DNA of 64,000 nucleotides, taken from the IMG/VR virus record IMGVR_UViG_3300037010_001838; one strand, 5' to 3'. The notes below the pieces were generated by a model. The model was not told the origin of the DNA. It saw only the letters and a list, made by a program, of their open reading frames with translations, and ran no database searches. A program made the position numbers and the translations under genes. Below, in pieces: positions 26,226 to 64,000 of the stretch. The stretch's first letter is position 1; the number at the start of each line of letters is the position of its first letter. Source of the DNA: a virus. Lineage: Duplodnaviria > Caudoviricetes.

Positions 26226-26561
26226 TCACGATGTTACTTCATTAGTATTTTTTGATAACCAACTCTTTAATTTAGAACCTTTCCAGTTCGTAAAATAATC
26301 GGTTTCATTTAAAGTTGGATTTTTTTCATCTTCAAACCGAATATGAACAGGTGTTGGATCGTTCACATCATCATATTTCCATTCCACAACCACTTGTTGT
26401 TTTGGTTTTAACAACAACGTAATCTTACTGTCATCTTCTCCATACACAGCAAGTTTACAATATCGAGAAATATCATAAACAGATCGTTGAACAGGCGATT
26501 TTTGTATTGCTTCTAACAGCCTATTTTTTGAATCCAAATATTCTTTGAAAGTAAGTTTCAT
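26226..26561 (-). CDS. Hypothetical late protein with capsid-targeting-like N-terminus
   Basis: Likely start MKLTFKEYL at 26561; late promoter at 26597-26604. Confidence 0.6.
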   Translation of the reverse strand: MKLTFKEYLDSKNRLLEAIQKSPVQRSVYDISRYCKLAVYGEDDSKITLLLKPKQQVVVEWKYDDVNDPTPVHIRFEDEKNPTLNETDYFTNWKGSKLKSWLSKNTNEVTS

Positions 26562-26596: not shown

Positions 26597-26604
26597 TATT
26601 TATA
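26597..26604 (-). promoter_or_regulatory. T4-type late promoter TATAAATA
   Basis: Exact consensus, downstream of the capsid terminator. Confidence 0.65.
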
Positions 26605-29035: not shown

Positions 29036-29043
29036 TATTTATA
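29036..29043 (-). promoter_or_regulatory. T4-type late promoter TATAAATA
   Basis: Exact consensus upstream of scaffold/capsid. Confidence 0.65.
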
Positions 29044-42467: not shown

Positions 42468-43037
42468 TTATTCTTCTGTAGGAGTATCTGTCTCTGTTTT
42501 AACTTCATCAGGATCACTGAATTCTGTATCTTCAACGATTGTTACGTTATTCCTCGCATATTCATCTAAATTACCGTTTATCATTGCTTCTCGCCGTTCA
42601 TGAAATTCTTCTTCATGGTCAAGAGTGTAACTCAAAGATGGATTAAACCCGTTTTCTATTAGTGATTTGTTTTTGATGTCTCGAACTCTACGTTCTTGGT
42701 TTAAGTATTGAATAAAAGAATGTTTAATACATTGGGTAAAAAAAGCAAAGGGGTTTGAACTCTTGTTTTCATCGAATGCCGACCAAGTTTTACAAAGCAT
42801 TAACATAGCATAAGCCTGCATGTCATCGTTATAAGAATAGTTCGCAAAATTGCCTTTTTTTGCGTAACGACTAGTCAAAGTTAGTAACATATTGGCTAAT
42901 TCATTTGACATGATACCCTTTTTCTTGCTTGTAACTACTTGAAAAAGTAAATCTTTGTTGTTGAGGTAATTTTTCTTTGGAGAGGTTGGTGCCACTACTT
43001 CGGTTGTTACTGGTGTTTCAGTTATTGGATTGCTCAT
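42468..43037 (-). CDS. gp55: Late-transcription sigma factor (gp55-like)
   Basis: NYLNNKDL..NFANYSY.DDM..FDENKSSNPFAFFTQ; start MSNPI at 43037 preferred. Confidence 0.85.
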   Translation of the reverse strand: MSNPITETPVTTEVVAPTSPKKNYLNNKDLLFQVVTSKKKGIMSNELANMLLTLTSRYAKKGNFANYSYNDDMQAYAMLMLCKTWSAFDENKSSNPFAFFTQCIKHSFIQYLNQERRVRDIKNKSLIENGFNPSLSYTLDHEEEFHERREAMINGNLDEYARNNVTIVEDTEFSDPDEVKTETDTPTEE

Positions 43038-43171
43038 TGGCGGTCCTTTATTATAATTATTATAGATGTATATTATACAATTTTTTGTATCACGTGACAA
43101 CAACATAAATATCAACACAGTCACATAAGTAAGAACAGACTTTACTCATATAACAACATATTTATGTTTTA

Positions 43172-47572: not shown

Positions 47573-50500
47573 ATGAGTTATATTTCAGCATTATTTAATA
47601 AAAACGAAAATGAAGTTGTAGTATGGGAAAGAAACAACGGGGTTCGGGAAGTAAAGACTTACCCAGCTCCGTTGTATTTCTATACAGAAGCCGAGAATGG
47701 GAATTATACAAGTATTTTTGGTAAAAAATTAATGAGGCATGACTTTGACACATATGCACAATTTTCAGAAACAAAAAGAAAATTAACACGTACAACACTG
47801 TATGAATCTGATATAATGCCAGATATTAAGGTGTTATCTGAGCATTATTATAATGTTACACCCCCAACTCCAAATATAACTTTATTGGATATTGAGGTTG
47901 ATTACAATCCAAAAATTGGATTCTCTTCAGCGAAAAATCCATATGCACCAATAAACGCAATAGCACTACACCATATTCACACGAATCGTTCTATTGTCGT
48001 TGCGATACCACCACCAGGATGGGACCCAACTACGTTTGATACAGCTTTGGAAGAATTATCGGAAATTGTCATAGTTCCAAACGAAAGAGAATTAATTAAT
48101 ATATTACTAGAAGAGATTGAAGATTCTGATATTTTATCCGGTTGGAACAGTGATTTCTTCGATATACCATATATTGCAAAACGAATCGAAAAAACCTTAG
48201 GAAAAAGTGCATTACGTCGTTTATCGTTTGATGGTGCTAATTTACCGAGATACCGTGAAGTTGAAGTGTTCAAACAACAGGCAATAACTTGTGACTTATC
48301 TGGGCGTGTTCATTTAGATTATATGAATTTATTCAGAAAATATGAAGTTGCTGAACGCCCATCTTATAAATTAGAGTCAATTGCAGAAGAGATTCTCCCA
48401 CATTTGCCTAAATTAGAATATGAAGGTTCTTTAGCTGAATTGTATAAAAATGATTTCAATCATTTCATTCGATATAACATTCGAGATACAGAAATTCTGA
48501 AAGGATTTGAACAGAAATTAGGATATATTGCACTTGCAAATGTGATGTGTCACACATCAACGTCTCAATTTAAAGATGTGTTTGGAACATTAAAATTATC
48601 TGATTTCGCTGTGGTAAATTACTGTCATTACGAACTTGACGTTAAAGTTCCTGATTGGACTGAAAAACCGGACGGAAGGATTCAGGGAGCATATGTTCTA
48701 TTACCACAGATTGGAATGCATGAGTGGATTGGTTCTATTGATATAAATAGTCTGTATCCAAGTTCAATACGAAGCATTAATATCAGCCCGGAAACGTTGA
48801 TTGGGCAGTTCACAGGAAATATATCTGATTGGGAAGAGATCGTTGCAAACTCTGATAATACAATAACGCTGGAATACGACAACGGAGAATTACAAGAAGG
48901 AACTGCAAGTGAGTGGAGACAATATCTAAAACAGAAGAAGTGGGTTGTTAGTGGTTTTGGAACTGTGTTTGATCAAAATAAACCAGGGATTGTTCCAACT
49001 ATTCTTGCAAAGTGGTATAAGCAGAGAAAAGAATACCAAAAGTTAAAGAATGAATATTACGAAAAAGCTCAACTCGCTTCTGACGAAACAGAAAAAGAAG
49101 AGTTGATGGAACAATCAGCATACTATGATAGATTGCAGTATGTGTTTAAGATTAAGTTAAACAGTTTTTATGGAGCATTAACAAACTACTACTTTCGATT
49201 CTTTGATTTAAGAATGGGTGAATCAACGACCGGAACTGGAAGAGCCATTCTACGTCACCAGGTTCGTAAAACAGCCGAGATTCTTGATGACGAGGAATAC
49301 GACACAAACTTTCCATTATATAGTTCTGTGAAAAGTGCTGAAAAGGACGGAAACGATCCAACATATGCACTCGATGGATCCGAATTCAAAGGAATATTTC
49401 CTGCAGAATCAATCATCTACGGTGATTCTGTGTCTGGTGATTCCGTTATCAATACAACAATGAAAGAGATTGAAATACAAACACTTTTCACGAAGGTTGA
49501 TTATGTTCGTGGAAACAAAGAATATTGTATTACAGATTTACCACAGGTGTTAACGTATAATGAAGAATTAAACAAAACCGAATATTCACAAATCAATTAC
49601 GTGATGAGACACAGGTGTAATAAAAAAATGTATCGAGTGTGGATTACAAACAGTCAATACATTAATGTTACTGAAGACCATTCTCTCATGGGATACGTAA
49701 ATTCGAAATTTAGGAAAAAATACAACAATGCTCACATATCTAAAGTTAAACCGACGGATTTGGGAACAGAAATCAAGACTCTGATATACCAAAAAACTCT
49801 CCCTCAAACAATCATTGAATCAAAAGAACTTTCAACTGAGATGTACGTGTTAATGGGATATGTGTTGGGAGATGGGTATGTAGATACAACAGACACAGGT
49901 GGAGTTCTGTTATCGTTAGGTAAACAAGATTTAGACGAAGTTGTTTCTAAACTGATAGTCCCACTAAAACAACAAGGTTGGTTGTCTTCCTACACAGTTA
50001 AACCTAACGTCCACGATATTCAAATCAGTGGAACCCAACTGAAAAAGTTTTTACGAAGAGAGTTGTATTCAACTGAAAATAAACAAATCCCTGCTTGGAT
50101 GTTCAATGAAACTCCAAGCAACATATCGTCTTTTATGAAAGGATGGTTCTCAGCAGATGGGTTTGTTAATATGAACGGAACCGTCGGATTGTGTAATATC
50201 GATGAACAGTTAATCGTTGGTGCACAAAAGTTATTATTTCGTTGCGGGATTTCATCCACTTGGTTCTCCGAACAAACCGAAAATTCGTATAAAAGTACAT
50301 TCTTCGGAACATTCACAAAACGGCTTACAGTTAAGAATGCAAATGATTTTTTTAATGTGGTTGGGTTTGTTCAAAACAGAAAACAAGATAAAATGCATTT
50401 AGTTAAAAACGGAAAAAGAAAATCTGAAATTTCAAAGTATGATTTTGAATTAGTAAATGTTTATAAGATAGAAGAAATACAATATTGTGATTATGTGTAT

Positions 50501-51367
50501 GATATCGAAGTTGACAACACTCATACATTCTTTGCAAATAATATCTTAGTTCATAACACAGATTCCGTATACTTTAATACTCACGGAAGAGATCAAGAAG
50601 AAGCTACGTTGATTGCAGACGCTGTTGCAAACCAAGTTAACAAGTCATTCCAAGGATTTATGCAAGAAGCATTCTTATGCAATCCAGGATACGACGATAT
50701 CATCAAGTGTGGTCGCGAAGTCGTTTCCGATCGTGGTATATTCGTCGATAAGAAGCGTTATGTTCTTCATTTGGTTGACTTAGATGGTCATCACGTTGAT
50801 AAGATGAAAATTATGGGTCTTGAATTGAAAAAGACTACTTTACCGAAACCAATTGCAAAAAAACTGTCTTTGTATGTTGAACGGTTATTGAAAGGTGAAA
50901 GTTGGGATGTGTTGTCGAGAGATATCGTAGATTTCAAAACAGAACTCAACGAGTCTGTTGATGTGATGTCAATTGGACTTCCTAAAGGGATAAAGGGGAT
51001 CGAGGAATATACTGCAGCCTGGAAGTTGAATGAGAAGACAAGATTACCTGGACACGTCGCAGCAGGGATATTTTGGAATAATATGTTACAGGAATACGGA
51101 GATAAAGAGAGCCTGTCGATAACATCAAATATGAAGATCAAAGTCTTTTATTTAAAACGCATGTTTGGTAGATTTAAAGCAATCGCAATCCCTACCGATT
51201 TGACTATTATACCACAATGGTTTTTGGAAGAGTTTGAACCGATTATTGACAAAAAGGTTCAAATTGAAAAATTGGTTGATGAAACACTTCGTAAAATCTT
51301 TGTTGTTATCAATTTAGAAGTACCAAGTCCCCAAAGCGTATTCATCGAAGAAGAAGTGGAATTTTAA
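47573..51367 (+). CDS. gp43: Family B DNA polymerase (gp43-like) containing an intein
   Basis: Exo motifs LLDIEVD, GWNSDFFDIPY, YNIRD; pol motifs SIDINSLYPS, KIKLNSFYG, YGD/TDS, KKRY. Confidence 0.96.
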   Translation: MSYISALFNKNENEVVVWERNNGVREVKTYPAPLYFYTEAENGNYTSIFGKKLMRHDFDTYAQFSETKRKLTRTTLYESDIMPDIKVLSEHYYNVTPPTPNITLLDIEVDYNPKIGFSSAKNPYAPINAIALHHIHTNRSIVVAIPPPGWDPTTFDTALEELSEIVIVPNERELINILLEEIEDSDILSGWNSDFFDIPYIAKRIEKTLGKSALRRLSFDGANLPRYREVEVFKQQAITCDLSGRVHLDYMNLFRKYEVAERPSYKLESIAEEILPHLPKLEYEGSLAELYKNDFNHFIRYNIRDTEILKGFEQKLGYIALANVMCHTSTSQFKDVFGTLKLSDFAVVNYCHYELDVKVPDWTEKPDGRIQGAYVLLPQIGMHEWIGSIDINSLYPSSIRSINISPETLIGQFTGNISDWEEIVANSDNTITLEYDNGELQEGTASEWRQYLKQKKWVVSGFGTVFDQNKPGIVPTILAKWYKQRKEYQKLKNEYYEKAQLASDETEKEELMEQSAYYDRLQYVFKIKLNSFYGALTNYYFRFFDLRMGESTTGTGRAILRHQVRKTAEILDDEEYDTNFPLYSSVKSAEKDGNDPTYALDGSEFKGIFPAESIIYGDSVSGDSVINTTMKEIEIQTLFTKVDYVRGNKEYCITDLPQVLTYNEELNKTEYSQINYVMRHRCNKKMYRVWITNSQYINVTEDHSLMGYVNSKFRKKYNNAHISKVKPTDLGTEIKTLIYQKTLPQTIIESKELSTEMYVLMGYVLGDGYVDTTDTGGVLLSLGKQDLDEVVSKLIVPLKQQGWLSSYTVKPNVHDIQISGTQLKKFLRRELYSTENKQIPAWMFNETPSNISSFMKGWFSADGFVNMNGTVGLCNIDEQLIVGAQKLLFRCGISSTWFSEQTENSYKSTFFGTFTKRLTVKNANDFFNVVGFVQNRKQDKMHLVKNGKRKSEISKYDFELVNVYKIEEIQYCDYVYDIEVDNTHTFFANNILVHNTDSVYFNTHGRDQEEATLIADAVANQVNKSFQGFMQEAFLCNPGYDDIIKCGREVVSDRGIFVDKKRYVLHLVDLDGHHVDKMKIMGLELKKTTLPKPIAKKLSLYVERLLKGESWDVLSRDIVDFKTELNESVDVMSIGLPKGIKGIEEYTAAWKLNEKTRLPGHVAAGIFWNNMLQEYGDKESLSITSNMKIKVFYLKRMFGRFKAIAIPTDLTIIPQWFLEEFEPIIDKKVQIEKLVDETLRKIFVVINLEVPSPQSVFIEEEVEF
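49427..50557 (+). mobile_element. 377-aa intein with LAGLIDADG-type endonuclease
   Basis: Splits YGD|TDS; begins SVSGDS, has TEDHSL, LMGYVLGDG, FMKGWFSADG, ends VYDIEVDNTHTFFANNILVHN with +1 Thr. Confidence 0.93.
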
Positions 51368-51507: not shown

Positions 51508-51903
51508 TTGATTTACACATCTAACTACACTCGTTCTGGAAAATACTCTCTTTCGTATGCAATCAGCGTTAAACCACCTGATTGGTATGAAGGGAAGTGT
51601 TTACCACAACTCGCTCCAACATGGGAACTTGTAACAGGTATAAAACGTGGAATTATTACTGAAGAAGAATATTCCACCAGATATATCAATCTTTTGATAT
51701 CTCGTAAATATGATCCTCAAAAAATTGTTGATGCATTACCGGATAACACTCGACTGCTTTGTTATGAAAGTGCAGGAGAGTTTTGTCATAGGAGAGTGCT
51801 TGCTAAATGGATAGAAGATAGTATTGGAGTGATTATCCCAGAGTGGACAAGCGAAGAAGATATTAAAAAAGAAGAAATGTTAAACGATTTAGTGGAATTT
51901 TGA
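51508..51903 (+). CDS. DUF488-like protein
   Basis: YTSNY..ISVKPPDW..QLAPTW..LLCYE..EFCHR. Confidence 0.65.
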   Translation: MIYTSNYTRSGKYSLSYAISVKPPDWYEGKCLPQLAPTWELVTGIKRGIITEEEYSTRYINLLISRKYDPQKIVDALPDNTRLLCYESAGEFCHRRVLAKWIEDSIGVIIPEWTSEEDIKKEEMLNDLVEF

Positions 51904-52292
51904 AAATAATTGTTGACCCCAACTATGTTTTGTGTTTAAGTGTATAACTTAACTGATGGGGTAACACAAATGACTACACTTACACATTCATTCAAAACTT
52001 GATGCCACGATTTACCCTCTTTACTCGAAGGGTGCAATAAAGTATCAACGTTCTGCTCACGATTGGAAAAACTTCCAAGGTGGATCAAGGTAGGTTGGGA
52101 CGAATTTGCGTTTTCTCTTGAATCAAAATTTAAATGAAATTGTCTGAAATATTTCTCGTCCCTGACCAATAATCAAAACGTTACACACTCTCTGATTTTT
52201 CAGATAAAGAACAAATTGGAACGAGCGAGGTATTCACATTTACACCACCCTTTTGATATTATCTGTAAGATTGATAACAAAACCAATCTTGT

Positions 52293-52300
52293 TATAAATA
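52293..52300 (+). promoter_or_regulatory. T4-type late promoter TATAAATA heading the 52325-62631 operon
   Basis: Exact consensus 24 nt before the 52325 ATG; no terminator seen between it and the array. Confidence 0.7.
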
Positions 52301-52324
52301 CATCTTATATTATGAGGGTTTATC

Positions 52325-53905
52325 ATGAAAAAACAACAAACTAATACCAAAACACATTCATCAATAAAAGATAAATTTGACCAAATTCGTTTGGACCATG
52401 AACAGGATCAGTTTCTATCTACTACTGACAAAAAAGAATATAAAACAAAAGAAGAAAAAGAAAAAGAAAAACTGTCTGCAAATAAATTGAAGACAGCATC
52501 ACGTGAAGCCACAGCAGCCAAAACACGATCTTTGTCTTCACACGAGGCTACTAAAAAATTAAGCAAAGCAGATTTGTCACATCAAGATGAAATATCTGAT
52601 GAACAAGCTGCAAGAAATGCAGGGGGGAGAACTTCCTCACCTAAAACAAAACCATCAACAGATCTTGTTACACCACAAAATTTACCTAAATTAATGTCGA
52701 AAGCATTATCTACGAATGACAACAAAATCATCCCAGAGTGGCACATGGTTAAACACCTACCTGGTTATTTGGCATCGGGTATTCGCTCTATCGGTCGCGC
52801 AGTTTTTAAACCTTTCACTGATACAAAAATAGAAGACATCCAAGTGTTGGCAAGTCTTGGGGGTCAAGGACCAAATACAGATAAAGAAATTAACGCAGTC
52901 GCGAATTATGTACTACATCACGGGCGTCGTGATACAGAAGCAGAGTTAATTTTTCATGACAGAATTCCAGATTACTCAGCTGATATTAAAATTTTCAAAA
53001 CTCTTGGATATACTTTTATGTTAGTGAAAGATTTTGCAGGGAAATATGTATATTCGTGGCCAACAAGTGACGAAAAAGTGTTATCACATAAAAAAGAAAA
53101 TCCACGGTTGAAAGAAAATAAAATGAAAAAAATAACGCTTTTACAATTTTTGTTAAGTGAAGGTATTGAACAAAAAATGGAATTATTAACAAAACAGTTT
53201 GGAACGAAATTACTCGATGCAGCAGACAAGGATGGTTCTGCGAAATCTTTATTAAAAGATCACGAACCGGCACAAAATGTCAAACACATCATCACGACAC
53301 TAAGTCAAGCCGACCCATCAGGAGAGCGTGGAGCTTTTATAACATTTATTTTACGAATGTATTCATTGAGACAATTTCGTGTTGAGGACGTTGAACGCAT
53401 AAAGGATACGTTGTCGGAGTTTATCAAAAAGAAAAATTCGTTGCCTCCAGAACAAAAAGACATAAACAGATTTGCAAATTTGGACCAATTGTATGATGCA
53501 GTTGAAGGAACAGAAGAGCATAAAAGTAATCGTTCCGTTAAAAAAGAAACCAAACAGACTGGTGTTGAAGTGCTAATCAAAACAGATAAGTTCCTCGCTG
53601 TGAGGTTACTGACACACGAAGCAGCATGCTATTATGCATCAGGTACAAAATGGTGTACTGTAAATAAAAGCAACTTCGATCATTATTCTAAAAATGATCC
53701 ACTCTTCGTGATTATAATAGCAGAGAAGGACGCTCAGGGTCGACAACGTAAATTTCAATTTCATTACGAATCAGGACAGCTAATGAACGAACGAGACCAA
53801 GAAATCACCAAGACAGAAATAAAACTTCTTTCATCATATCCAGAATGGAGTAAGTTCCTAGAAAAAATAATTAAAGACAAATATATGAGCATGTCACAGA
53901 AGTGA
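52325..53905 (+). CDS. Two-part hypothetical protein, C-terminal GTKWCT-motif domain
   Basis: K-rich N-half; internal MKKITLLQFLLSE at 53123; C-terminal HEAACYYASGTKWCT..KFQFHYESGQLMNERD (PcfJ-like from memory, low confidence). Confidence 0.6.
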   Translation: MKKQQTNTKTHSSIKDKFDQIRLDHEQDQFLSTTDKKEYKTKEEKEKEKLSANKLKTASREATAAKTRSLSSHEATKKLSKADLSHQDEISDEQAARNAGGRTSSPKTKPSTDLVTPQNLPKLMSKALSTNDNKIIPEWHMVKHLPGYLASGIRSIGRAVFKPFTDTKIEDIQVLASLGGQGPNTDKEINAVANYVLHHGRRDTEAELIFHDRIPDYSADIKIFKTLGYTFMLVKDFAGKYVYSWPTSDEKVLSHKKENPRLKENKMKKITLLQFLLSEGIEQKMELLTKQFGTKLLDAADKDGSAKSLLKDHEPAQNVKHIITTLSQADPSGERGAFITFILRMYSLRQFRVEDVERIKDTLSEFIKKKNSLPPEQKDINRFANLDQLYDAVEGTEEHKSNRSVKKETKQTGVEVLIKTDKFLAVRLLTHEAACYYASGTKWCTVNKSNFDHYSKNDPLFVIIIAEKDAQGRQRKFQFHYESGQLMNERDQEITKTEIKLLSSYPEWSKFLEKIIKDKYMSMSQK

Positions 53906-53911
53906 ATCAAA

Positions 53912-54532
53912 ATGAAATTGCGCGACTTATTCGAAGCAATGGATTTATACAAATATCATTCAAACCCAGAAAAATTGCATGGGTTTGATAAAAAGCACAT
54001 GGCTACGCCTGAGATGGCTTTTGGAGCATTAAAAGGTGGAAAATTAAATGCACAACAGAAAAAAGAAGCAGAGTCTGTTGTTGCAACAGATCCACAGTGG
54101 GCTTATTGGTATGCTCATTATGTCATTAAGGGAAGATGGCCTAAAGCGGAACCTGTTATTGCAAAAGATCTACTGTGGGTTCATGCGTATGCTCGTGATG
54201 TCATCAAAGGAAGATGGCCTGAAGCAGAACCTGCTATTGCAAAAAAAGCATATTGGGCTTATGCGTATGCTCGTCATGTCATCAAAGGAAGGTTTCCTAA
54301 AGGAGAACCTGCTATTGCAAAAGATCCAGAGTATGCTTGTGGGTATGCTCGTTATGTCATTAAAGGAAGATGGCCTGAAGCAGAACCTGCTATTGCAAAA
54401 AAAGCATATTGGGCTTATGCGTATGCTCGTCATGTCATCAAAGGAAGGTTTCCTAAAGGAGAACCTGCTATTGCAAAAGATCCACAGTGGGCTAACAAAT
54501 ACAACGAATTTATTAAAGGACTTTCAAAATGA
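53912..54532 (+). CDS. 26-aa-repeat protein 1 (5 repeats)
   Basis: 61-aa N-cap + 5x26 + 15-aa C-cap = 206 aa. Confidence 0.93.
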   Translation: MKLRDLFEAMDLYKYHSNPEKLHGFDKKHMATPEMAFGALKGGKLNAQQKKEAESVVATDPQWAYWYAHYVIKGRWPKAEPVIAKDLLWVHAYARDVIKGRWPEAEPAIAKKAYWAYAYARHVIKGRFPKGEPAIAKDPEYACGYARYVIKGRWPEAEPAIAKKAYWAYAYARHVIKGRFPKGEPAIAKDPQWANKYNEFIKGLSK

Positions 54533-55227
54533 AATTACGCGACTTATTTGAAGCAATGGACTTATACAAATATCACTCGAATCCAGAGACGTTACCTGGA
54601 TATGATAAAAAGCACATAATTACTCTTGAGATGGCCTATGAGGCACTAAAGAGTGGAAAATTAAACGCACAACAGAAAAAAGAAGCAGAGTCTGTTATTG
54701 CAACAGATCCACGATGGGCTTATAGGTATGCTCGTTATGTCATCAAAGGAAGATGGCCTAAAGTAGAACCTGTTATTGCAGAAGATTCAGAGTGGGCTTA
54801 TAGTTATGCTCGTTATGTCATCAAAGGAAGATGGCCTAAAGCAGAACCTGTTATTGCAAAAGATCCAGAGTGGGCTTGTTGGTATGCTCATTATGTCATT
54901 AAAGGAAGATGGACTAAAGCAGAACCTGTTATTGCAAAAGATCCAGAATGGGCTTGGTTGTATGCTCGTCATGTCATTAAAGGAAGATGGCCTGAAGGAG
55001 AACCTGCTATTGTAAAAGATCTACAGTCGGCTTCATATTATGCTTATTATGTCATTAAAGAAAGATTTCCTGAAGCAGAACCTGCTATTGCAAAAGATCC
55101 AAAGTGGGCTTATGTGTATGCTCGTCATGTCATTAAAGGAAGATGGCCTGAAGGAGAACCTGCTATTGCAAAAAATCCAGAGTGGGCTAAAAAATACAAC
55201 GAATTCATCAAAGGACTTTCAAAATGA
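54529..55227 (+). CDS. 26-aa-repeat protein 2 (6 repeats)
   Basis: 232 aa; ATGA overlap; most divergent N-cap (PETLPGYDKKHIITLE). Confidence 0.93.
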   Translation: MKLRDLFEAMDLYKYHSNPETLPGYDKKHIITLEMAYEALKSGKLNAQQKKEAESVIATDPRWAYRYARYVIKGRWPKVEPVIAEDSEWAYSYARYVIKGRWPKAEPVIAKDPEWACWYAHYVIKGRWTKAEPVIAKDPEWAWLYARHVIKGRWPEGEPAIVKDLQSASYYAYYVIKERFPEAEPAIAKDPKWAYVYARHVIKGRWPEGEPAIAKNPEWAKKYNEFIKGLSK

Positions 55228-55844
55228 AACTACGTGATCTATTCGAAGCGATGGACTTATACAAATACCACTCGAATCCAGAGAAGTTACATGGATATGA
55301 TAAAAAGCACATGGCTACACCTGAGATGGCTTTTGAAGCATTAAAAGGTGGAAAATTAAATGCACAACAGAAAAAAGAAGCAGAGTCTGTTGTTGCAACA
55401 GATCCACAGTGGGCTTTTTTGTATGCTCGCGATGTCATTAAAGAAAGATTCCCTAAAGGAGAATCTGTCATTGCAAAAAAAGCAAATTGGGCTTATGTGT
55501 ATGCTCGTTCTGTCATCCAAGGAAGATGGCCTAAAGCGGAACCTGTTATTGCAAAAAATCCACAGTGGGCTTATGAGTATGCTCATGATGTTATCAAAGG
55601 AAGATGGCCTGAAGGAGAACCTGCTATTGCAAAAGATTCAACATATGCTTATTGGTATGCTTGTTATGTCATCGAAGAAAGATTTCCTAAAGGAGAATCT
55701 GTCATTGCAAAACATCCAAAATGGGCTTATGATTATGCTCATGATGTCATCAAAGGAAGATGGCCTGAAGGAGAACCTGTTATTGCAAAAGATCCAAAGT
55801 GGGCTAAACCATACAACGAATTCATCAAAGGACTTTCGAAATGA
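55224..55844 (+). CDS. 26-aa-repeat protein 3 (5 repeats)
   Basis: 206 aa; ATGA overlap. Confidence 0.93.
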   Translation: MKLRDLFEAMDLYKYHSNPEKLHGYDKKHMATPEMAFEALKGGKLNAQQKKEAESVVATDPQWAFLYARDVIKERFPKGESVIAKKANWAYVYARSVIQGRWPKAEPVIAKNPQWAYEYAHDVIKGRWPEGEPAIAKDSTYAYWYACYVIEERFPKGESVIAKHPKWAYDYAHDVIKGRWPEGEPVIAKDPKWAKPYNEFIKGLSK

Positions 55845-56305
55845 AACTACGTGATCTATTCGAAGCAATGGATTTATACAAATATCATTCAAACCCAGAG
55901 AAATTGCATGGATATGATAAAAAACACATGGCTACTCCTGAGATGGCATATGAGGCACTAAAAAGTGGAAAGTTGAATGCACAACAAAAGAAAGAAGCAG
56001 AATCTGTTGTTGCAAAAGATCCAGAGTTTGCTTGTTGGTATGCTCGTGATGTCATCAAAGGAAGATTTCCTAAAGGAGAACCTGCTATTGCAAAAGATCC
56101 TGAATGGGCTTATTGGTATGCTTGTAATGTCATCAAAGGAAGATTTCCTAAAGGAGAATCTGCTATTGCAAAAGATCCAGAATGGGCTTGTTGGTATGCT
56201 CGTTCTGTCATCAAAGGAAGATTTCCTGAAGCAGAACCTGCTATTGCAAAACATCCAAAATGGACCAAAAAATACAAAGAATTTATTAAAGGAATTTCAA
56301 AATGA
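55841..56305 (+). CDS. 26-aa-repeat protein 4 (3 repeats)
   Basis: 154 aa; ATGA overlap. Confidence 0.93.
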   Translation: MKLRDLFEAMDLYKYHSNPEKLHGYDKKHMATPEMAYEALKSGKLNAQQKKEAESVVAKDPEFACWYARDVIKGRFPKGEPAIAKDPEWAYWYACNVIKGRFPKGESAIAKDPEWACWYARSVIKGRFPEAEPAIAKHPKWTKKYKEFIKGISK

Positions 56306-56844
56306 AATTGCGTGATCTACTCGAAGCAATGGATTTATACAAATACCACTCGAATCCAGAGAAGTTACATGGATATGATAAAAAACACATGGCTACTCCT
56401 GAGATGGCCTATGAGGCACTAGAGAGTGGAAAACTGAATGCACAACAAAAGAAAGAAGCAGAATCTGTTGTTGCAACAGATCCAAAGTTTGCTTCATATT
56501 ATGCTCGTGATGTCATCAAAGGAAGATTTCCTGAAGGAGAACCTGTTGTTGCAACAGATCCAAAGTTTGCTTCATATTATGCTCGTGATGTCATCAAAGG
56601 AAGCTTTCCTGAAGCAGAGTCTGTTATTGCAAAAGATCCACAGTGGGCTTCATATTATGCTCGTGATGTCATCAAAGGAAGATTTCCTAAAGGAGAACCT
56701 GTTATTGCAAAAGATCCAGAGTATGCTTATTGGTATGCTCATTCTGTCATCAAAGGAAGATTTCCTGAAGCAGAACCTGTTATTGCAAAAGATCCACACC
56801 TGGCTAAAAATTACAACAAATTCATCAAAGGACTTTCAAAATGA
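56302..56844 (+). CDS. 26-aa-repeat protein 5 (4 repeats)
   Basis: 180 aa; ATGA overlap. Confidence 0.93.
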   Translation: MKLRDLLEAMDLYKYHSNPEKLHGYDKKHMATPEMAYEALESGKLNAQQKKEAESVVATDPKFASYYARDVIKGRFPEGEPVVATDPKFASYYARDVIKGSFPEAESVIAKDPQWASYYARDVIKGRFPKGEPVIAKDPEYAYWYAHSVIKGRFPEAEPVIAKDPHLAKNYNKFIKGLSK

Positions 56845-57539
56845 AATTACGTGACTTATTCGAAGCGATGAACTTATACAAATACCACTCAAACCCAGAG
56901 AAATTGCATGGATATGATAAAAAACACATGGCTACGCCTGAGATGGCATATGAGGCACTAAAGAGTGGAAAATTAAATGCACAACAGAAAAAAGAAGCAG
57001 AGTCTGTTGTTGCAACAGATACAAAGTGGGCTTATTGGTATGTCAGTAATGTCATCAAAGAAAGATTTCCTAAAGGAGAACCTGCTATTGCAAAAGATCC
57101 AGAATGGGCTTTTTTGTATGCTCGTGATGTCATCAAAGGAAGATTTCCTGAAGCAGAATCTGTTATTGCAAAAGATCCACGGATGGCTTATATGTACGCT
57201 CATGATGTCATCAAAGAAAGATTTCCTAAAGGAGAACCTGCTGTTGCAAAAAAAGCAGATTGGGCTTATGAGTATGCTCGTTATATCATTAAAGAAAGAT
57301 TTCCTAAAGGAGAATCTGTCATTGCAAAAGATCCAGATTATGCTTTTTGGTATGCTCGTGATGTCATCAAAGGAAGATGGCCTGAAGGAGAACCTGCTAT
57401 TGCAAAAAATCCACGGACGGCTTATATGTACGCTCATGATGTCATCAAAGAAAGATTTCCTGAAGGAGAACCTGTTATTGCAAAACATCCAGAATGGGCT
57501 AAACCATACAAAGAATTTATTAAAGGAATTTCGAAATGA
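56841..57539 (+). CDS. 26-aa-repeat protein 6 (6 repeats)
   Basis: 232 aa; ATGA overlap. Confidence 0.93.
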   Translation: MKLRDLFEAMNLYKYHSNPEKLHGYDKKHMATPEMAYEALKSGKLNAQQKKEAESVVATDTKWAYWYVSNVIKERFPKGEPAIAKDPEWAFLYARDVIKGRFPEAESVIAKDPRMAYMYAHDVIKERFPKGEPAVAKKADWAYEYARYIIKERFPKGESVIAKDPDYAFWYARDVIKGRWPEGEPAIAKNPRTAYMYAHDVIKERFPEGEPVIAKHPEWAKPYKEFIKGISK

Positions 57540-58234
57540 AATTACGTGACTTATTCGAAGCGATGGATTTATACAAATACCACTCAAATCCAGAGAAGTT
57601 ACATGGATATGATAAAAAGCACATGGCTACTCCACAGATGGCTTTTGAAGCATTAAAAGGTGAAAAATTAAATGCACAACAGAAAAAAGAAGCAGAATCT
57701 GTTGTTGCAACAGATACAAAGTGGGCTTATTGGTATGCTCGTGATGTCATTGAAGGAAGATTTCCTAAAGGAGAATCTGTCATTGCAAAAGATCCAGAGT
57801 ATGCTTATTGGTATACTCATTATGTCATCAAAGGAAGATGGCCTAAAGCAGAACCTGTTATTACAAAAGATCCAGAGTATGCTTATTGGTATGCTCATTC
57901 TGTCATCAAAGGAAGATTTCCTGAAGCAGAACCTGTTATTGCAAAAGATCCACAGTGGGCTTATGAGTATGTTCGTAATGTCATCAAAGGAAGATGGCCT
58001 GAAGCAGAACCTGCTATTGCAAAAGATCCAAAGTTGGCTTATTGGTATGCTCGTGATGTCATCAAGGAAAGATTTCCTAAAGGAGAACCTGCTGTTGCAA
58101 AAAATCCACGGACGGCTTATTGGTATGCTCATGATGTCATCAACGGAAGATGGCCTGAAGCAGAACCTGCTATTGCAAAAGATCCAAAATGGGCTAAAAA
58201 ATACAACGAATTCATCAAAGGACTTTCAAAATGA
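57536..58234 (+). CDS. 26-aa-repeat protein 7 (6 repeats)
   Basis: 232 aa; ATGA overlap. Confidence 0.93.
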   Translation: MKLRDLFEAMDLYKYHSNPEKLHGYDKKHMATPQMAFEALKGEKLNAQQKKEAESVVATDTKWAYWYARDVIEGRFPKGESVIAKDPEYAYWYTHYVIKGRWPKAEPVITKDPEYAYWYAHSVIKGRFPEAEPVIAKDPQWAYEYVRNVIKGRWPEAEPAIAKDPKLAYWYARDVIKERFPKGEPAVAKNPRTAYWYAHDVINGRWPEAEPAIAKDPKWAKKYNEFIKGLSK

Positions 58235-58929
58235 AACTACGTGATCTATTCGAAGCAATGGATTTATACAAATATCACTCGAATCCAGAGAAATTGCATG
58301 GGTTTGATAAAAAGCACATGGCTACGCCTGAGATGGCATATGAGGCACTAAAGAGTGGAAAACTGAATGCACAACAAAAGAAAGAAGCAGAATCTGTTAT
58401 TGTAACAGATCCAGAGTTTGCTTATTGGTATGCTCGTTCTGTCATCCAAGGAAGATGGCCTAAGGCAGAACCTGTTATTGCAACAGATACACAGTGGGCT
58501 TATGAGTATGCTCGTGATGTCATCAAAGGAAGATGGCCTGAAGCAGAACCTGCTATTGCAAAAGATCCTGAATGGGCTTATTGGTATGCTTGTAATGTCA
58601 TCAAAGAAAGATTTCCTAAAGGAGAACCTGCTATTGCAAAAGATCCACGGTCGGCTTATACGTACGCTCGTGATGTCATCAAAGGAAGATGGCCTGAAGC
58701 AGAACCTGCTATTGCAAAACATCCAAAATGGGCTTATGATTATGCTCGTTCTGTCATCAAAGGAAGATGGCCTGAAGCAGAACCTGCTATTGCAACAGAT
58801 ACAAAGTGGGCTTATTGGTATGCTCGTGATGTCATCAAAGGAAGATGGCCTAAAGCAGAACCTGCTATTGCAAAAGATACAAAATGGGCTAAAAGATATA
58901 ACGAATTCATCAAAGGACTTTCAAAATGA
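58231..58929 (+). CDS. 26-aa-repeat protein 8 (6 repeats)
   Basis: 232 aa; ATGA overlap. Confidence 0.93.
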   Translation: MKLRDLFEAMDLYKYHSNPEKLHGFDKKHMATPEMAYEALKSGKLNAQQKKEAESVIVTDPEFAYWYARSVIQGRWPKAEPVIATDTQWAYEYARDVIKGRWPEAEPAIAKDPEWAYWYACNVIKERFPKGEPAIAKDPRSAYTYARDVIKGRWPEAEPAIAKHPKWAYDYARSVIKGRWPEAEPAIATDTKWAYWYARDVIKGRWPKAEPAIAKDTKWAKRYNEFIKGLSK

Positions 58930-59546
58930 AACTACGCGACTTATTCGAAGCGATGGATTTATACAAATATCATTCAAACCCAGAAAAATTGCATGGGTTT
59001 GATAAAAAGCACATGGCTACGCCTGAGATGGCTTTTGGAGCATTAAAAGGTGGAAAATTAAATGCACAACAGAAAAAAGAAGCAGAGTCTGTTGTTGCAA
59101 CAGATCCACAGTGGGCTTATAGGTATGCTGATGATATCATCAAAGGAAGATGGCCTGAAGCAGAATCTGTTATTGCAAAAGATCCAGAATGGGCTTTTTT
59201 GTATGCTCGTGATTTCATTAAAGGAAGATTTCCTGAAGCAGAATCTGTTATTGCAAAAAATCCACGGACGGCTTATATGTACGCTCATGATGTCATTAAA
59301 GGAAGATTTCCTGAAGCAGAATCTGTTATTGTAAAAGATCCAGAATGGGCTTGGTTGTATGCTCGTGATGTCATCAAAGGAAGATTTCCTGAAGCAGAAT
59401 CTGTTATTGCAAAAGATCCGCGTTGGGCTTATTGGTATGCTAGTGATGTCATCAAAGGAAGATGGATTGAAGGAGAACCTGCTATTGCAAAAGACCCAAC
59501 ATATGCTAAACGGTACAAACAAGACATCAAAGGACTTTCGAAATGA
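58926..59546 (+). CDS. 26-aa-repeat protein 9 (5 repeats)
   Basis: 206 aa; ATGA overlap. Confidence 0.93.
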   Translation: MKLRDLFEAMDLYKYHSNPEKLHGFDKKHMATPEMAFGALKGGKLNAQQKKEAESVVATDPQWAYRYADDIIKGRWPEAESVIAKDPEWAFLYARDFIKGRFPEAESVIAKNPRTAYMYAHDVIKGRFPEAESVIVKDPEWAWLYARDVIKGRFPEAESVIAKDPRWAYWYASDVIKGRWIEGEPAIAKDPTYAKRYKQDIKGLSK

Positions 59547-60241
59547 AACTACGTGATCTATTCGAAGCGATGGATTTATACAAATACCACTCAAATCCAG
59601 AGAAGTTACATGGATATGATAAAAAGCACATGGCTACGCCTGAGATGGCCTATGATGCAGCAAAAAGTGGAAAGTTGAATGTGCAACAGAAGAAAGAAGC
59701 AGAATCTGTTATTGCAACAAATCCACGGTGGGCTTATAAGTATGCTCAACAAGTCATCGAAAGAAGATTTACTGAAGCAGAACCTGTTATTGCAAAAAAA
59801 GCAGATTGGGCTTATGTGTATGCACAACAAATCATCAAAGGAAGATGGCCTGAAGCAGAACCTGTTATTGCAAAAAAAGCAGATTGGGCTTATGAATATG
59901 CTCGTTCTATCATCCAAGGAAGATGGCCTAAAGCAGAACCTGTTATTGCAAAAAACCCACAGTGGGCTTATTGGTATGCTCGTAATGTCATCAAAGGAAG
60001 ATGGCCTGAAGCAGAACCTGTTATTGCAAAAGATCCAGGTTGGGCTTATGAGTATGCTCGTGAGGTCATCAAAGGAAGATGGCCTGAAGGAGAACCTGCT
60101 ATTGCAAAAGATCCACGGTGGGCTTATGAGTATGTTCTTCATTTCATCAAAGGAAGATTTCCTGAAGCAGAACCTGCTATTGCAAAAACCCCACACCTGG
60201 CTAAAAAATACAACGAATTCATCAAAGGACTTTCGAAATGA
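59543..60241 (+). CDS. 26-aa-repeat protein 10 (6 repeats)
   Basis: 232 aa; ATGA overlap. Confidence 0.93.
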   Translation: MKLRDLFEAMDLYKYHSNPEKLHGYDKKHMATPEMAYDAAKSGKLNVQQKKEAESVIATNPRWAYKYAQQVIERRFTEAEPVIAKKADWAYVYAQQIIKGRWPEAEPVIAKKADWAYEYARSIIQGRWPKAEPVIAKNPQWAYWYARNVIKGRWPEAEPVIAKDPGWAYEYAREVIKGRWPEGEPAIAKDPRWAYEYVLHFIKGRFPEAEPAIAKTPHLAKKYNEFIKGLSK

Positions 60242-60780
60242 AACTACGTGACTTACTCGAAGCAATGGATTTATATAAATATCATTCAAATCCAGAGAAG
60301 TTACATGGATATGATAAAAAGCACATGGCTACGCCTGAGATGGCTTTTGAAGCATTAAAAGGTGGAAAATTAAACGCACAACAGAAAAAAGAAGCAGAGT
60401 CTGTTGTTGCAACAGATCCAAGGTGGGCTTGTTTGTATGCTCGTAATGTCATCAAAGAAAGATTTCCTAAAGGAGAATCTGCTATTGCAAAAGATACACG
60501 TTGGGCTTGTTTGTATGCTCGTTATGTCATTAAAGGAAGATGGCCTGAAGGAGAACCTGCTATTGCAAAAAAAGCAGATTGGGCTTATGAGTATGCTCGT
60601 AATGTCATCAAAGGAAGATTTCCTGAAGCAGAATCTGTTATTGCAAAAGATCCAGAGTGGGCTTATGGGTATGCTCGTGATGTCATCAAAGAAAGATTTC
60701 CTGAAGGAGAACCTGTTATTGCAAAACATCCAGAGTGGGCTAAACCATACAACGAATTTATTAAAGGACTTTCAAAATGA
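60238..60780 (+). CDS. 26-aa-repeat protein 11 (4 repeats)
   Basis: 180 aa; ATGA overlap. Confidence 0.93.
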   Translation: MKLRDLLEAMDLYKYHSNPEKLHGYDKKHMATPEMAFEALKGGKLNAQQKKEAESVVATDPRWACLYARNVIKERFPKGESAIAKDTRWACLYARYVIKGRWPEGEPAIAKKADWAYEYARNVIKGRFPEAESVIAKDPEWAYGYARDVIKERFPEGEPVIAKHPEWAKPYNEFIKGLSK

Positions 60781-61475
60781 AACTACGTGATCTATTCGAA
60801 GCAATGGATTTATACAAATACCACTCAAATCCAGAGAAGTTACATGGATATGATAAAAAGCACATGGCTACGCCTGAGATGGCTTTTTTTGCATTAAAAG
60901 GTGGAAAATTAAATGCACAACAGAAAAAAGAAGCAGAATCTGTTGTTGCAACAGATCCACAGTGGGCTTATAGTTATGCTCGTAATGTCATCAAAGGAAG
61001 ATGGTCTGAAGCAGAACCTGCTATTGCAAAAGACCCAGAATGGGCTTTTTTGTATGCTCGTGATATCATCAAGGGAAGATGGCCTGAAGCAGAACCTGTT
61101 ATTGCAAAAGACCCAGAATGGGCTTTTTTGTATGCTCGTGATGTCATCAAGGGAAGATGGCCTGAAGGAGAACCTGCTATTGCAAAAAACCCACAGTGGG
61201 CTTATTGGTATGCTAGTAATGTCATCAAAGAAAGATTTCCTAAAGGAGAACCTGCTATTGCAAAAGATTCAGAATGGGCTTTTTTGTATGCTCGTGATGC
61301 CGTCAAAGGAAGATGGCCTGAAGCAGAACCTGCTATTGCAAAAGATCCACGTTGGGCTTATAATTATGCTCGTTCTGTCATCAAAGGAAGATGGCCTGAA
61401 GAAGAACCTGCTATTGCAAAAGATCCAACATATGCTAAACGGTATAAACAAGACATCAAAGGACTTTCGAAATGA
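60777..61475 (+). CDS. 26-aa-repeat protein 12 (6 repeats)
   Basis: 232 aa; ATGA overlap. Confidence 0.93.
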   Translation: MKLRDLFEAMDLYKYHSNPEKLHGYDKKHMATPEMAFFALKGGKLNAQQKKEAESVVATDPQWAYSYARNVIKGRWSEAEPAIAKDPEWAFLYARDIIKGRWPEAEPVIAKDPEWAFLYARDVIKGRWPEGEPAIAKNPQWAYWYASNVIKERFPKGEPAIAKDSEWAFLYARDAVKGRWPEAEPAIAKDPRWAYNYARSVIKGRWPEEEPAIAKDPTYAKRYKQDIKGLSK

Positions 61476-62092
61476 AACTACGCGACTTATTCGAAGCAAT
61501 GGATTTATACAAATATCACTCGAATCCAGAAAAATTGCATGGGTTTGATAAAAAACACATGGCTACTCCTGAGATGGCCTATGAGGCACTAGAGAGTGGA
61601 AAACTGAATGCACAACAAAAGAAAGAAGCAGAATCTGTTGTTGCAACAGACACAAAGTGGGCTTATGAGTATGCTCATGATGTCATCAAAGGAAGATGGC
61701 CTAAAGGAGAATCTGTCATTGCAAAAGATCCACGTTTGGCTTATATTTATGCTCGTGATGTCATCAAGGAAAGATTTCCTGAAGCAGAACCTGCTGTTGC
61801 AAAAGATCCACGTTTGGCTTATTGGTATGCTCGTGAGGTCATCAAAGGAAGGTTTCCTAAAGGAGAACCTGTTATTGCAAAAGATCCAGAGTTGGCTTAT
61901 GGGTATGCTCGTGATGTCATCAAAGAAAGATTTCCTAAAGGAGAATCTGTCATTGCAAAAGATCCAAAGTGGGCTTATGGGTATGCTCGTGATGTCATCA
62001 AAGAAAGATGGCCTGAAGGAGAACCTGCTATTGCAAAAGATCCAAAGTGGTCTAAAAATTACAACGAATTCATCAAAGGACTTTCGAAATGA
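61472..62092 (+). CDS. 26-aa-repeat protein 13 (5 repeats)
   Basis: 206 aa; ATGA overlap. Confidence 0.93.
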   Translation: MKLRDLFEAMDLYKYHSNPEKLHGFDKKHMATPEMAYEALESGKLNAQQKKEAESVVATDTKWAYEYAHDVIKGRWPKGESVIAKDPRLAYIYARDVIKERFPEAEPAVAKDPRLAYWYAREVIKGRFPKGEPVIAKDPELAYGYARDVIKERFPKGESVIAKDPKWAYGYARDVIKERWPEGEPAIAKDPKWSKNYNEFIKGLSK

Positions 62093-62631
62093 AATTACGC
62101 GACTTGTTTGAAGCAATGGATTTATACAAATATCACTCGAGTCCAGAAAAATTGCATGGGTTTGATAAAAAGCACATGGCTACGCCTGAGATGGCTTTTG
62201 AAGCATTAAAAGGTGGAAAATTAAACGCACAACAAAAGAAAGAAGCAGAGTCTGTTGTTGCAACAGATCCACAGTGGGCTTTTTTGTATGCTCGTGATGT
62301 CATCAAGGGAAGGTGGCCTGAAGGAGAACCTGCTATTGCAAAAGACCCAGAATGGGCTTTTTTGTATGCTCGTGATGTCATTGAAGGACGATGGTCTGAT
62401 GCAGAACCTGCTATTGCAAAAGATCCACGGTGGGCTTATTGGTATGCTCGTGATGTCATCAAAGGAAGATTTCCTGAAGCAGAATCTGTTATTGCAAAAG
62501 ATCCACGGTGGGCTTGTTGGTATGCTCGTTATGTCATCAAGGGAAGATGGCCTGAAGGAGAACCTGTTATTGCAAAAGATCCAGAATGGGCTAAAACATA
62601 CAACGAATTTATTAAAAGACTTTCGAAATGA
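62089..62631 (+). CDS. 26-aa-repeat protein 14 (4 repeats)
   Basis: 180 aa; ATGA overlap; ends KRLSK instead of KG(L/I)SK. Confidence 0.93.
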   Translation: MKLRDLFEAMDLYKYHSSPEKLHGFDKKHMATPEMAFEALKGGKLNAQQKKEAESVVATDPQWAFLYARDVIKGRWPEGEPAIAKDPEWAFLYARDVIEGRWSDAEPAIAKDPRWAYWYARDVIKGRFPEAESVIAKDPRWACWYARYVIKGRWPEGEPVIAKDPEWAKTYNEFIKRLSK

Positions 62632-62637
62632 AACTGC

Positions 62638-62780
62638 ACACTGGAAAATGTTTCTGGTGTAGCAACAATAAGAAAGTAGTCAATTGAACATTAAAATGTT
62701 GTTTTTCTTTATCTTCTCGGTGTATAATTATTTGAATGAGATAAAATTTATCTGCTAATATATAACAAACATGTTATATA
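62638..62780 (-). ncRNA. Candidate TnpB omega/reRNA scaffold and element right end
   Basis: Non-coding, directly 3' of the TnpB-like ORF, several hairpins (62759-62780 TATATAAC/GTTATATA; 62739-62753 AGATAAA/TTTATCT; 62638-62660 imperfect palindrome). Positional inference only. Confidence 0.35.
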
Positions 62781-64000
62781 TCATATAACAAAACACATGT
62801 CTTGTTGCAAATAAATTTCTGAAAACCATCCATTGCTGGAATTGGAACTCGATATCTCATTTTCGAGTCTTTGATGAACGTGAACAATTCTTTCCATGTT
62901 TTGTAATGTGGCCACTCTACTTCTTCCTTCCATAGGTTCTTTAGAGTGCAAACATTAATCAACATCGGATAGAATTCTTTACGTTTATATCCACGTCTTG
63001 CAATTTCACAAGCAGCAGAAATTGGGTCAGGTAATTGATAAATCAAATTACCAATAAAACTACTATAGTGAGGAAATACTTTTTTAACTGTGAAGAAACG
63101 TTTGCATCGTTTTTCGATCAGTTGGGCTGTTAATTTACGATTCCATACGTTGTTGACCAGTCGGTTAAAGTTCTTTCCTTTATTGTGGTTCTGGTTTTTG
63201 AATGATAGATCTTCTATTGTTAACAAATTCACATTATATCCAACACAGATGTGTTGTATTTGTTTTGATATCTGTGATATTTCGTGTTTGCTTTTGTTTA
63301 CAAGATAAGAACTGTTATCAGAATCGTTAATTGTAAGATCAGACAATTTCCACAATCTGGAAAACAGTCGGTTATCTTCATCAAAAATTGATAGAGCAAT
63401 ATAATTAGGATTTAGGTCAATCCCTGCATGTCTGGTGGCAATTGGAGTATAATTAATATTTGTTTCTAATTTTGTATCATCAAATGAAAAGAAAATATCT
63501 GTGTTTGTTAATTTAACTTGATAAGAAACCTGAGAATTTTCAGCACTTTGTTGAAGTTTGGTTAACAATTTTTTGTAATTGTTTTTTAACTTTGGTAAAG
63601 TCAACAAAATCTTTTGGTTTCGAGAAAGTTTAAAGATAACTAATGAATTTTCGATATCAAGTTCAAATTTTCTATTTCCGTGTTTGCTCGTCTCACCTAC
63701 AATTGACAATGGCAACAGTCGCAATTGTTGAATCTGTTCTTTTGACAGTTTTTGCAATGCCCTCTGTTTAAAATTGTTCTTGCCACCAAATATTCTGTTT
63801 GATTTTTCGGTTGATATATCAGAACTAGCCATTGCTAGCCCTTCATTCACTGCGCTATTTAATAGCCAACTGTCAGTTTCAGGCCATTTGTTGACCACAT
63901 CTCTGTACATATCATTACGATAAATACCTTCCATTCCACGATTGTAACAATATCGTACGACAGACGACAGTTGTTTTTGTAACTGTTCAATCGTTTGGAT
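62774..64000 (-). mobile_element. tnpB: TnpB-like RuvC nuclease of the IS200/IS605/IS607 superfamily (5' end beyond window)
   Basis: RuvC-I HAGIDLNP, RuvC-II LTIEDLSF, RuvC-III YSSFIGN..LPDPISAACEIARRG; the frame stays open from 63934 to the window edge (IQTIEQLQKQLSSVVRYCYNRG) with the typical R.xYN N-terminal motif. Confidence 0.8.

Follow-up and report, generated by a model that had tools for sequence, protein, structure and literature searches.

Why would a phage encode fourteen paralogous repeat proteins in a row, each opening with the same short peptide, and where would these proteins act? We addressed this question for a stretch of 64,000 nucleotides (nt) of viral DNA (IMG/VR record IMGVR_UViG_3300037010_001838; the whole stretch is called the window below), in which one operon comprises a gene for a 526-aa protein ending in a domain that we call GTKWCT, followed by an array of 14 paralogous genes whose products share the leader MKLRDL(F/L)E|A (the bar marks the position of a possible cut). 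A preliminary description of this DNA had proposed that the array proteins are packaged and injected in the manner of the internal proteins (IPs) of phage T4. In our analysis all sequence premises of that proposal hold and new lines of evidence agree with it, while packaging, cleavage and injection themselves are steps that we infer. Considering the evidence set out below, we find it plausible, with a probability of roughly 45%, that the operon functions like the internal-protein system of T4, and this is the most economical explanation of the locus.

Fourteen array proteins share a constrained leader

In each array protein the leader of 8 residues is followed by a conserved N-terminal segment, then by 3-6 repeats of 26 aa and finally by a tail ending in ..FIKGLSK; the codons of this conserved tail (..IKGLSK) supply the AAAGGA that serves the next gene as ribosome-binding site. 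All array proteins are rich in Lys and basic, with a pI of 8.5-9.7. In the AlphaFold2 model (predicted local distance difference test, pLDDT, 92) an alpha-solenoid begins at residue 33 and takes up the rest of the protein. Definition is poor over residues 1-30 (pLDDT 53-66), including a short helix at residues 3-9, and the leader is modelled as floppy (pLDDT ~53). As described previously, all 14 proteins begin with MKLRDL(F/L)EAM, the variable position giving LFE in 12 copies and LLE in those that start at 56302 and 60238. Among the 14 copies, codons 3, 4, 5, 6 and 9 of the leader vary only synonymously and codon 7 encodes F or L; as judged from this pattern, the leader is translated and constrained by purifying selection, and we regard it as very likely to be functional. 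Distant homologs that lack the leader start directly at M(N/D)LYK(F/Y)H, for example with MNLYKFH, at the position that corresponds to Met10 here. On this comparison the leader is a lineage-specific N-terminal addition.

Searches with Pfam and PHROG assigned the array proteins to no family above threshold and returned sub-threshold noise (HTH_35, FF, RepB), although more than 1,000 homologs were found in metagenomes and the nearest structural clusters in the ESM Atlas are 80-100% viral. The best Foldseek match of the array model in the PDB was weak (1lrv, E=0.06), and the AFDB and Atlas matches (TM 0.5-0.66) were to LRV, HEAT and DUF4116 entries, which are generic solenoids. With these families, and with natural or designed repeat binders, the array proteins share stacked two-helix repeats, a conserved framework and variable surface positions, whereas their 26-residue WPEAEP unit represents a distinct, largely viral family that reaches no Pfam threshold. 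Among cultured phages, searched at the level of DNA and with tblastn, the array had no match at E<=1e-5 and a single weak one at E<=1 (Salicola phage SCTP-2), so that there is no proteome to borrow for the repeat proteins. Compared with any part of the window array, those of two related contigs from other samples (L002 and L003) reach only ~85% identity; since they are no closer to it than its own paralogs are to each other, the locus turns over fast. We also noted long open reading frames (ORFs) of up to 227 aa running across most copies of the array, in a second forward frame (54048-62662; MHNRKKKQ..LLLQKI..) and on the minus strand (54170-62381), which are probably a by-product of the codon content of the repeats.

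The leader ends in the motif of predicted head protein cleavage sites

The gp21-like prohead protease and the gp55-like sigma factor that had been proposed for the window were both confirmed by PHROG matches (Table 1), and the protease sites quoted for its head proteins are present, namely LLE17|G and LTE41|T in the capsid protein and LLE10|A in the scaffold. In a pairwise alignment, LTE41|T falls exactly on LTE65|A of T4 gp23, the known maturation site that releases a propeptide of 65 residues (PMC5694885). The capsid protein has five [LI]xE sites, which are confined to residues 1-41, and none in the remaining 408 residues (42-449), while the scaffold contains 22 such sites, and this distribution reproduces the T4 pattern of a resistant shell around a shredded core. 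The phage's gp21-type protease thus evidently uses [LI]-x-E on its own capsid and scaffold proteins, as far as can be judged from the site distribution. The identification of the scaffold rests on gene order, because its sole PHROG match carries no annotated function.

The capsid-targeting sequence (CTS) of T4 and the internal protein IPI* have been described (PMC3012670, PMC5694885). According to the T4 record, IPII and IPIII start with MKTYQEFIAE|A, and the array leader likewise begins with MK and ends in [LI]-x-E|A. The likeness extends to the presence of a gp21-type protease and a gp22-type scaffold, to basic Lys-rich proteins encoded at a strain-variable locus behind a late-promoter motif, and to a type of leader that is common to unrelated small proteins of one genome. 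Features of a CTS-type signal are thus found together here: a short propeptide ending in [LI]-x-E, a gp21-type protease with a scaffold core, and the occurrence of the leader on unrelated proteins. In contrast to T4, the array leader has 8 residues rather than 10, and instead of a few unrelated genes there are 14 tandem alpha-solenoid paralogs in one coupled operon. We found no homology of the array proteins to IPI, IPII or IPIII, either by sequence (PHROG, Pfam) or by fold (alpha-solenoid), and therefore our claim is that they work like T4 internal proteins, not that they belong to the same family. A related arrangement has been described for gp53 and gp54 of phage SPN3US and gp93 of phiKZ, processed ejection proteins of giant phages. 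These paralogous head proteins have identical N-terminal residues, which include the protease motif and have been read as capsid-targeting-like (PMC5694885). Unlike the array leader, their propeptides are mostly longer than 100 residues and the motif is A/S-x-E; the proteins are unrelated to those of the array and are not repeat binders.

The operon is preceded by a T4-type late promoter motif

The motif TATAAATA, reported before on the same strand ahead of the 526-aa gene and the array, is present (Table 1). The window contains 15 copies of it where 5.3 are expected, a number that was reached in none of 100 shuffles. About 10 of the 15 are followed at a distance of 22-82 nt by a start codon in the same orientation, for the most part that of a tail, head or neck gene. 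The copy at the operon is placed like those in front of the tail, sheath, neck and scaffold genes of the window. The operon thus combines what characterises T4-type late genes, TATAAATA about 20-40 nt upstream of the start and a gp55-type sigma factor encoded by the same phage. In two relatives, TATAAATA or CATAAATA is found 25-67 nt before the GTKWCT gene: L004 carries TATAAATA ahead of it and L011 carries CATAAATA ~27 nt upstream. Based on the promoter motif, late transcription of the operon is likely.

Two further observations concern the same motif. Within the N-terminal segment of the array proteins, the conserved stretch L-Y-K-Y can be encoded by codons that read TATAAATA, as they do at 60274-60281 on the plus strand. 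The motif is avoided in 13 of the 14 copies, in twelve through the choice of TAC at Tyr13. The TATAAATA in front of the GTKWCT gene of L004 (8616-8623) comes from a remnant MNLYKYY pseudo-start.

The leader occurs on unrelated genes of the same phage

For a scan of leader-like starts we joined the window to IMG/VR record G001 (178,796 bp), which is 100% identical to the window and stops at window position 53680, shortly ahead of the array, at which its assembly broke. Position 1 of the window corresponds to G001 123,340, and the G001 coordinates given below belong to the same phage, upstream of the window. In the resulting crude set of 266 ORFs, the strict pattern ^MKL..L.E heads four unrelated genes outside the array, far above the number predicted from composition. 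Three of these are unrelated ORFs of 78-95 aa (starting with MKLNQLLE, MKLKQLFE and MKLKQLFE) and the fourth is an HNH/NUMOD4 endonuclease; near-variants of the leader were found on four further genes, one of them again a small ORF. Each of the four small ORFs (78-95 aa; Table 1) is preceded by (T/A/G/C)ATAAATA at a distance of 25-41 nt, and we consider them candidates for further leader-tagged late proteins. When all genes were compared, NATAAATA lay 15-70 nt upstream of 7 of the 10 non-array genes that start with MKL as opposed to 36 of 256 other genes (Fisher p=1.5e-4); it is found at all four small leader ORFs and is absent at the endonuclease gene and at the gene of a P-loop kinase. A side observation concerns a 212-aa ORF (G001 80950-81588) that starts with MKLFEII, contains a DLHSGNIM motif resembling kinase catalytic loops and has GATAAATA upstream; its product may be a leader-tagged enzyme.

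Alternatively, MKL..L.E could be a generic or mobile 5' gene cassette, or a mere preference of start regions, with no role in targeting or cleavage, in which case the resemblance to a CTS would be coincidental. This would explain why MKL starts are as frequent as 24 in 266 crude genes, and why the homing endonuclease (G001 64762-65130) carries an 11-residue addition, MKLEELME.., in front of its Pfam domain without a late-promoter motif. An endonuclease is an awkward bearer of a packaging signal, given that a capsid location would be unexpected for it. A looser form of the leader also heads the P-loop kinase, again ahead of the Pfam domain. Moreover, in the L004/L028 lineage of relatives, the nearest one with a short leader, the start MKLHE overlaps the end of the preceding gene, and 1 nt beyond the stop of that gene there is a second ATG (MNLYK), so that this short 'leader' may not be translated at all. 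On the other hand, conservation does not extend to the DNA ahead of the leader-bearing ORFs, and hence the DNA gives no sign of a shared cassette; the amino acids of the leader are kept through synonymous changes; and it is the enzyme genes that lack NATAAATA, whereas the small ORFs all have it. Taken together, we regard a cassette without targeting function as quite improbable.

A GTKWCT relative is a virion protein and a related cassette lies in a head module

The 526-aa protein has no match in Pfam, and its C-terminal half is a member of the GTKWCT family, for which a profile search retrieved 12,455 representative proteins at E<=0.001 and in which G174, W177 and C178 are invariant (alignment A3). 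The AlphaFold2 model of residues 267-526 has a pLDDT of 87, with 52 for its first 10 residues. Residues 282-506 match gp205 of Pseudomonas phage PA5oct (EST35_0205; 33% identity, E=3e-29), a protein annotated as 'structural protein, ESI-MS/MS'; in PA5oct virions, 93 associated proteins have been identified by mass spectrometry (PMC7318152). gp205 has the GTKWCT motif, starts with MKLFEVFTLYE|D and comes from a phage in the same broad group of large T4-core myoviruses; it differs in that its C-terminal half is not a WPEAEP repeat and that it is not accompanied by an array. Only three PA5oct proteins have MKLxE starts (gp75, gp205 and gp382), of which gp205 alone was detected by mass spectrometry.

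Leader-like N-termini recur in the family. The element MKKITLLQFLLSE|G inside the 526-aa ORF (Table 1) corresponds to the N-terminus of stand-alone GTKWCT proteins, and the GTKWCT protein of one relative (P0125) starts with MKLNKLFE. In alignment A3, [LI]xE occurs at about residues 8-13 in 20 of 22 N-termini, these 20 being all that reach the aligned position, and among representatives with the GTKWCT domain at the N-terminus it occurs at about residues 5-13 in 106 of 121. The commonest N-terminal form, ..LLEY(K/R)RDIT, may be no more than a piece of the first helix. GTKWCT and the array repeats are also connected elsewhere: many proteins combine the domain with WPEAEP repeats in one chain (P0010, P0013, P0024, P0043, P0117 and P0126), its gene adjoins a repeat-protein gene in L004 and L011, and in other proteins it is fused to ankyrin or leucine-rich repeats (LRR). 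In L004 the gene order is portal, protease, scaffold, capsid protein, a 540-aa insert, an array gene, the GTKWCT gene and two array genes, followed by a homolog of the small gene that comes after the capsid gene in the window; the cassette thus lies inside the head module, on the strand of the capsid gene.

Alternatively, the array proteins could be outer virion, tail or baseplate components that act as decoration, adhesins or host-recognition adaptors and are not injected. The gp205 gene of PA5oct has structural genes of the neck and tail region as neighbours, mass spectrometry does not distinguish the inside of a particle from its outside, and hypervariable repeat surfaces would suit receptor binding; in another phage (L007) an array is flanked by baseplate genes and a 2,874-aa gene. 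Against such an outer position, the basic, Lys-rich composition together with a cleavable leader fits core or DNA-associated proteins, the L004 genes come right after those for scaffold and capsid, and alpha-solenoids would be unusual as phage receptor-binding proteins. We therefore consider a location on the outside of the particle highly improbable.

Regarding molecular function, Foldseek found nothing in the PDB for the model of the GTKWCT domain, and for another part of the 526-aa protein, residues 100-270, the ESM Atlas feature search yielded no match of use. Weak structural matches of the GTKWCT domain to entries named PcfJ-like (PF14284) were seen, and as in those entries repeat domains often follow the GTKWCT domain. 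At the gathering threshold, however, the window protein does not match PF14284, and among 22 GTKWCT relatives one hits the model at E=8e-5, below the cut-off. With VIA-align, GNAT acetyltransferase folds scored Z<=6 for the domain, which is below the level that counts as meaningful for this tool; no enzymatic assignment is made.

Weighing packaging against action in the producing cell

Besides the endonuclease, the kinase and the overlapping MKLHE start mentioned above, a number of observations weigh against packaging and injection. The 14 leaders are paralogous and hence count as one evolutionary event, and residues 1-60 of the array proteins are conserved as much as the leader itself. The ten-gene array of L007 (8072-13366) is leaderless, all copies starting with MNLY.., and in the L011 and P0089 contexts GTKWCT/repeat pairs are found among nucleotide-metabolism genes; as a consequence, the family is independent of the leader and of a position in the head module. 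The 526-aa protein itself has no N-terminal leader, its leader-like element being internal. As for the motif, [LI]xE occurs within the first 12 residues of 7 of 48 other window proteins (15%), the capsid protein, the scaffold and the protease being three of these seven, and the mature array proteins contain 16 such sites where 22.8 are expected, a mild depletion that stems mostly from the VIKERFP variant of the repeat. A predicted complex between the GTKWCT domain and an array protein reached an ipSAE of 0.33, compared with 0.00 for the best control (contact agreement between runs at least 15%, partner pLDDT at least 81). This is a weak pass that we do not take as evidence of binding: the mark is reached by 58 of 80 solved complexes and by 2 of 110 mismatched pairs, and at 0.60 or below a pass is usually wrong, except where the pairing was likely beforehand. 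With respect to expression, a sigma70-like promoter candidate is located 30 nt upstream of the late motif (Table 1) and would permit early in addition to late transcription, and among the four runs that carry the locus, all of them metagenomes, there is no RNA run. The ip genes of T4 have both early and late promoters. If the array genes are equipped in the same way, early rather than late expression, which the preliminary description had named as refuting packaging, would be too strict a refutation.

Several of these points would be accounted for if the array proteins were made late, or early and late, and acted unpackaged in the producing cell, on late host defences, on assembly or on superinfecting phages. 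The leader would then serve another role, for example in contacting the GTKWCT partner or in efficient coupled translation. Leaderless arrays in other phages, GTKWCT/repeat pairs among metabolism genes, conservation of the whole N-terminal 60 residues beyond the leader, and a sigma70-like promoter upstream would all be in line with this explanation. It does not account for the end of the leader being the exact protease motif of this phage's capsid and scaffold proteins, nor for the sharing of the leader with unrelated small ORFs that have late-promoter-like motifs; in addition, one family member is a virion protein, and the cassette lies in the head module of a relative. We consider action restricted to the producing cell unlikely.

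Returning to an internal-protein-like function, the mechanism that we consider most likely parallels that of T4. The leader would bring the array proteins into the scaffolding core of the prohead, where the gp21-type protease would cut it off after Glu8. Thus trimmed, the basic proteins would remain associated with the DNA and accompany it into the host, and their variable repeat surfaces would bind host targets, perhaps jointly with the GTKWCT protein. The parts of this model are not equally probable: cleavage of the leader and encapsidation have, in our estimate, slightly less than even odds, and injection with an anti-defence role is doubtful. In its fullest form, the model states that the capsid is loaded with 14 hypervariable alpha-solenoid binders and a GTKWCT partner, which are injected as a pre-made, strain-variable counter-defence set, and that the leader also marks a wider range of small late proteins and possibly a kinase-like protein as injected cargo. 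It would then be an 'address tag' of general use for effectors delivered by phages beyond the T-even group; this we put forward as a tentative and rather doubtful proposal.

Genomic context of the operon

According to PHROG matches, which include those for the large terminase, tail sheath, tube and portal, the window derives from an uncultured myovirus with T4-core genes. A protein of the array was found on a contig of 211,186 bp, and the phage is a T4-core myovirus of ~211 kb. Its closest cultured relative by capsid protein is Xanthomonas phage XacN1 (62.6% identity), followed by Rak2/121Q-like phages; the XacN1 paper includes virion proteomics and has nothing on leaders or processing. The locus is present in four microbial-mat and sediment metagenomes (runs X1-X4), in which short-read unitigs confirm the existence of the array copies, the order of the 14 genes being beyond their reach.

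Table 1. Positions of the features discussed. Coordinates refer to the window unless G001 is stated.
Feature	Position	Strand	Basis and remarks
Late promoter motif TATAAATA, T4 type	52293-52300	+	last base 24 nt before the first ATG (52325)
Sigma70-like promoter candidate	52233-52262	+	TTCACA-18-TATTAT with TG extension; consensus scan, 10/12 matches, motif only
First gene of the operon, 526 aa	52325-53905	+	residues 1-125 Lys-rich, low complexity; 126-266 further domain; 267-526 GTKWCT domain
Internal leader-like element	53123-53161	+	residues 267-279 of the 526-aa ORF
Array of 14 coupled paralogous genes	53912-62631	+	154-232 aa; successive genes overlap by ATGA
Start positions of array genes	53912, 54529, 55224, 55841, 56302, 56841, 57536, 58231, 58926, 59543, 60238, 60777, 61472, 62089	+	
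Leader MKLRDLFE|A (example)	53912-53938	+	the same 27-nt region opens every copy
Major capsid protein, gp23 type	26692-28041	-	phrog_138 at 9e-97
Scaffold, gp22 position	28073-29005	-	gene order; starts MNELLKKLLE|A; TATAAATA upstream at 29036-29043
Prohead protease, gp21 / S77 type	29146-29781	-	phrog_207 at 1e-58; 34% identity to T4 gp21
Portal	30263-32005	-	PHROG match
Late sigma factor, gp55 type	42468-43124	-	phrog_234 at 1.5e-26, phrog_12791 at 7e-24
Small leader ORF	G001 53435-53671		starts MKLNQLLE; no family match
Small leader ORF	G001 79681-79956		starts MKLKQLFE; no family match
Small leader ORF	G001 83325-83612		starts MKLKQLFE; no family match
Small leader ORF	G001 65909-66145		starts MKLRDLLNE (near-variant); no family match

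Several neighbouring genes deserve mention. Directly after the capsid gene, a small gene on the minus strand (26226-26561) has its own TATAAATA at 26597-26604 and starts with MKLTFKEYLDS; it is kept in L004 (10646-10996), has no family match and could encode a small head protein. Upstream of the operon, the DNA polymerase ORF (47573-51367, plus strand, 1,264 aa) has an apparent intein inside the conserved YGDTDS motif (..IIYGD / insert / ..VHNTDSVYF), and an intein is likewise found in the portal gene of L004 (Pfam Intein_splicing). The DNA polymerase gene is separated from the operon by a gene of the DUF488-N3a family (51508-51903, plus strand; E=5e-8). On the other side, convergent with the array, a 386-aa ORF (62774-63934, minus strand) without a Pfam match has a transposase-like look (GIDLN motif). 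It is apparently an insertion next to the array that varies between strains, because the contigs of runs X1-X3 diverge there, at 62732, 62737 and 62805.

Significance for phage-delivered proteins

Injected phage proteins are a first line against host defences because they are active before any phage gene is expressed, and to our knowledge few of them have been recognised outside T4, the ejection proteins of the P22/T7 type and the phiKZ group. Should the internal-protein interpretation turn out to be wrong, the locus would still represent a clearly delimited late operon that diversifies rapidly and encodes an uncharacterised family of phage proteins. If it is correct, it would give a role to a large, mostly viral family that has no Pfam model, with more than 1,000 repeat proteins and more than 12,000 GTKWCT representatives, and it would extend the capsid-targeting principle of T4 to distant T4-core phages that use a different leader. 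Injected cargo would then be predictable from sequence by means of the leader. The array itself would be a natural library of stable repeat binders, the targets of which may point to unknown defence systems.

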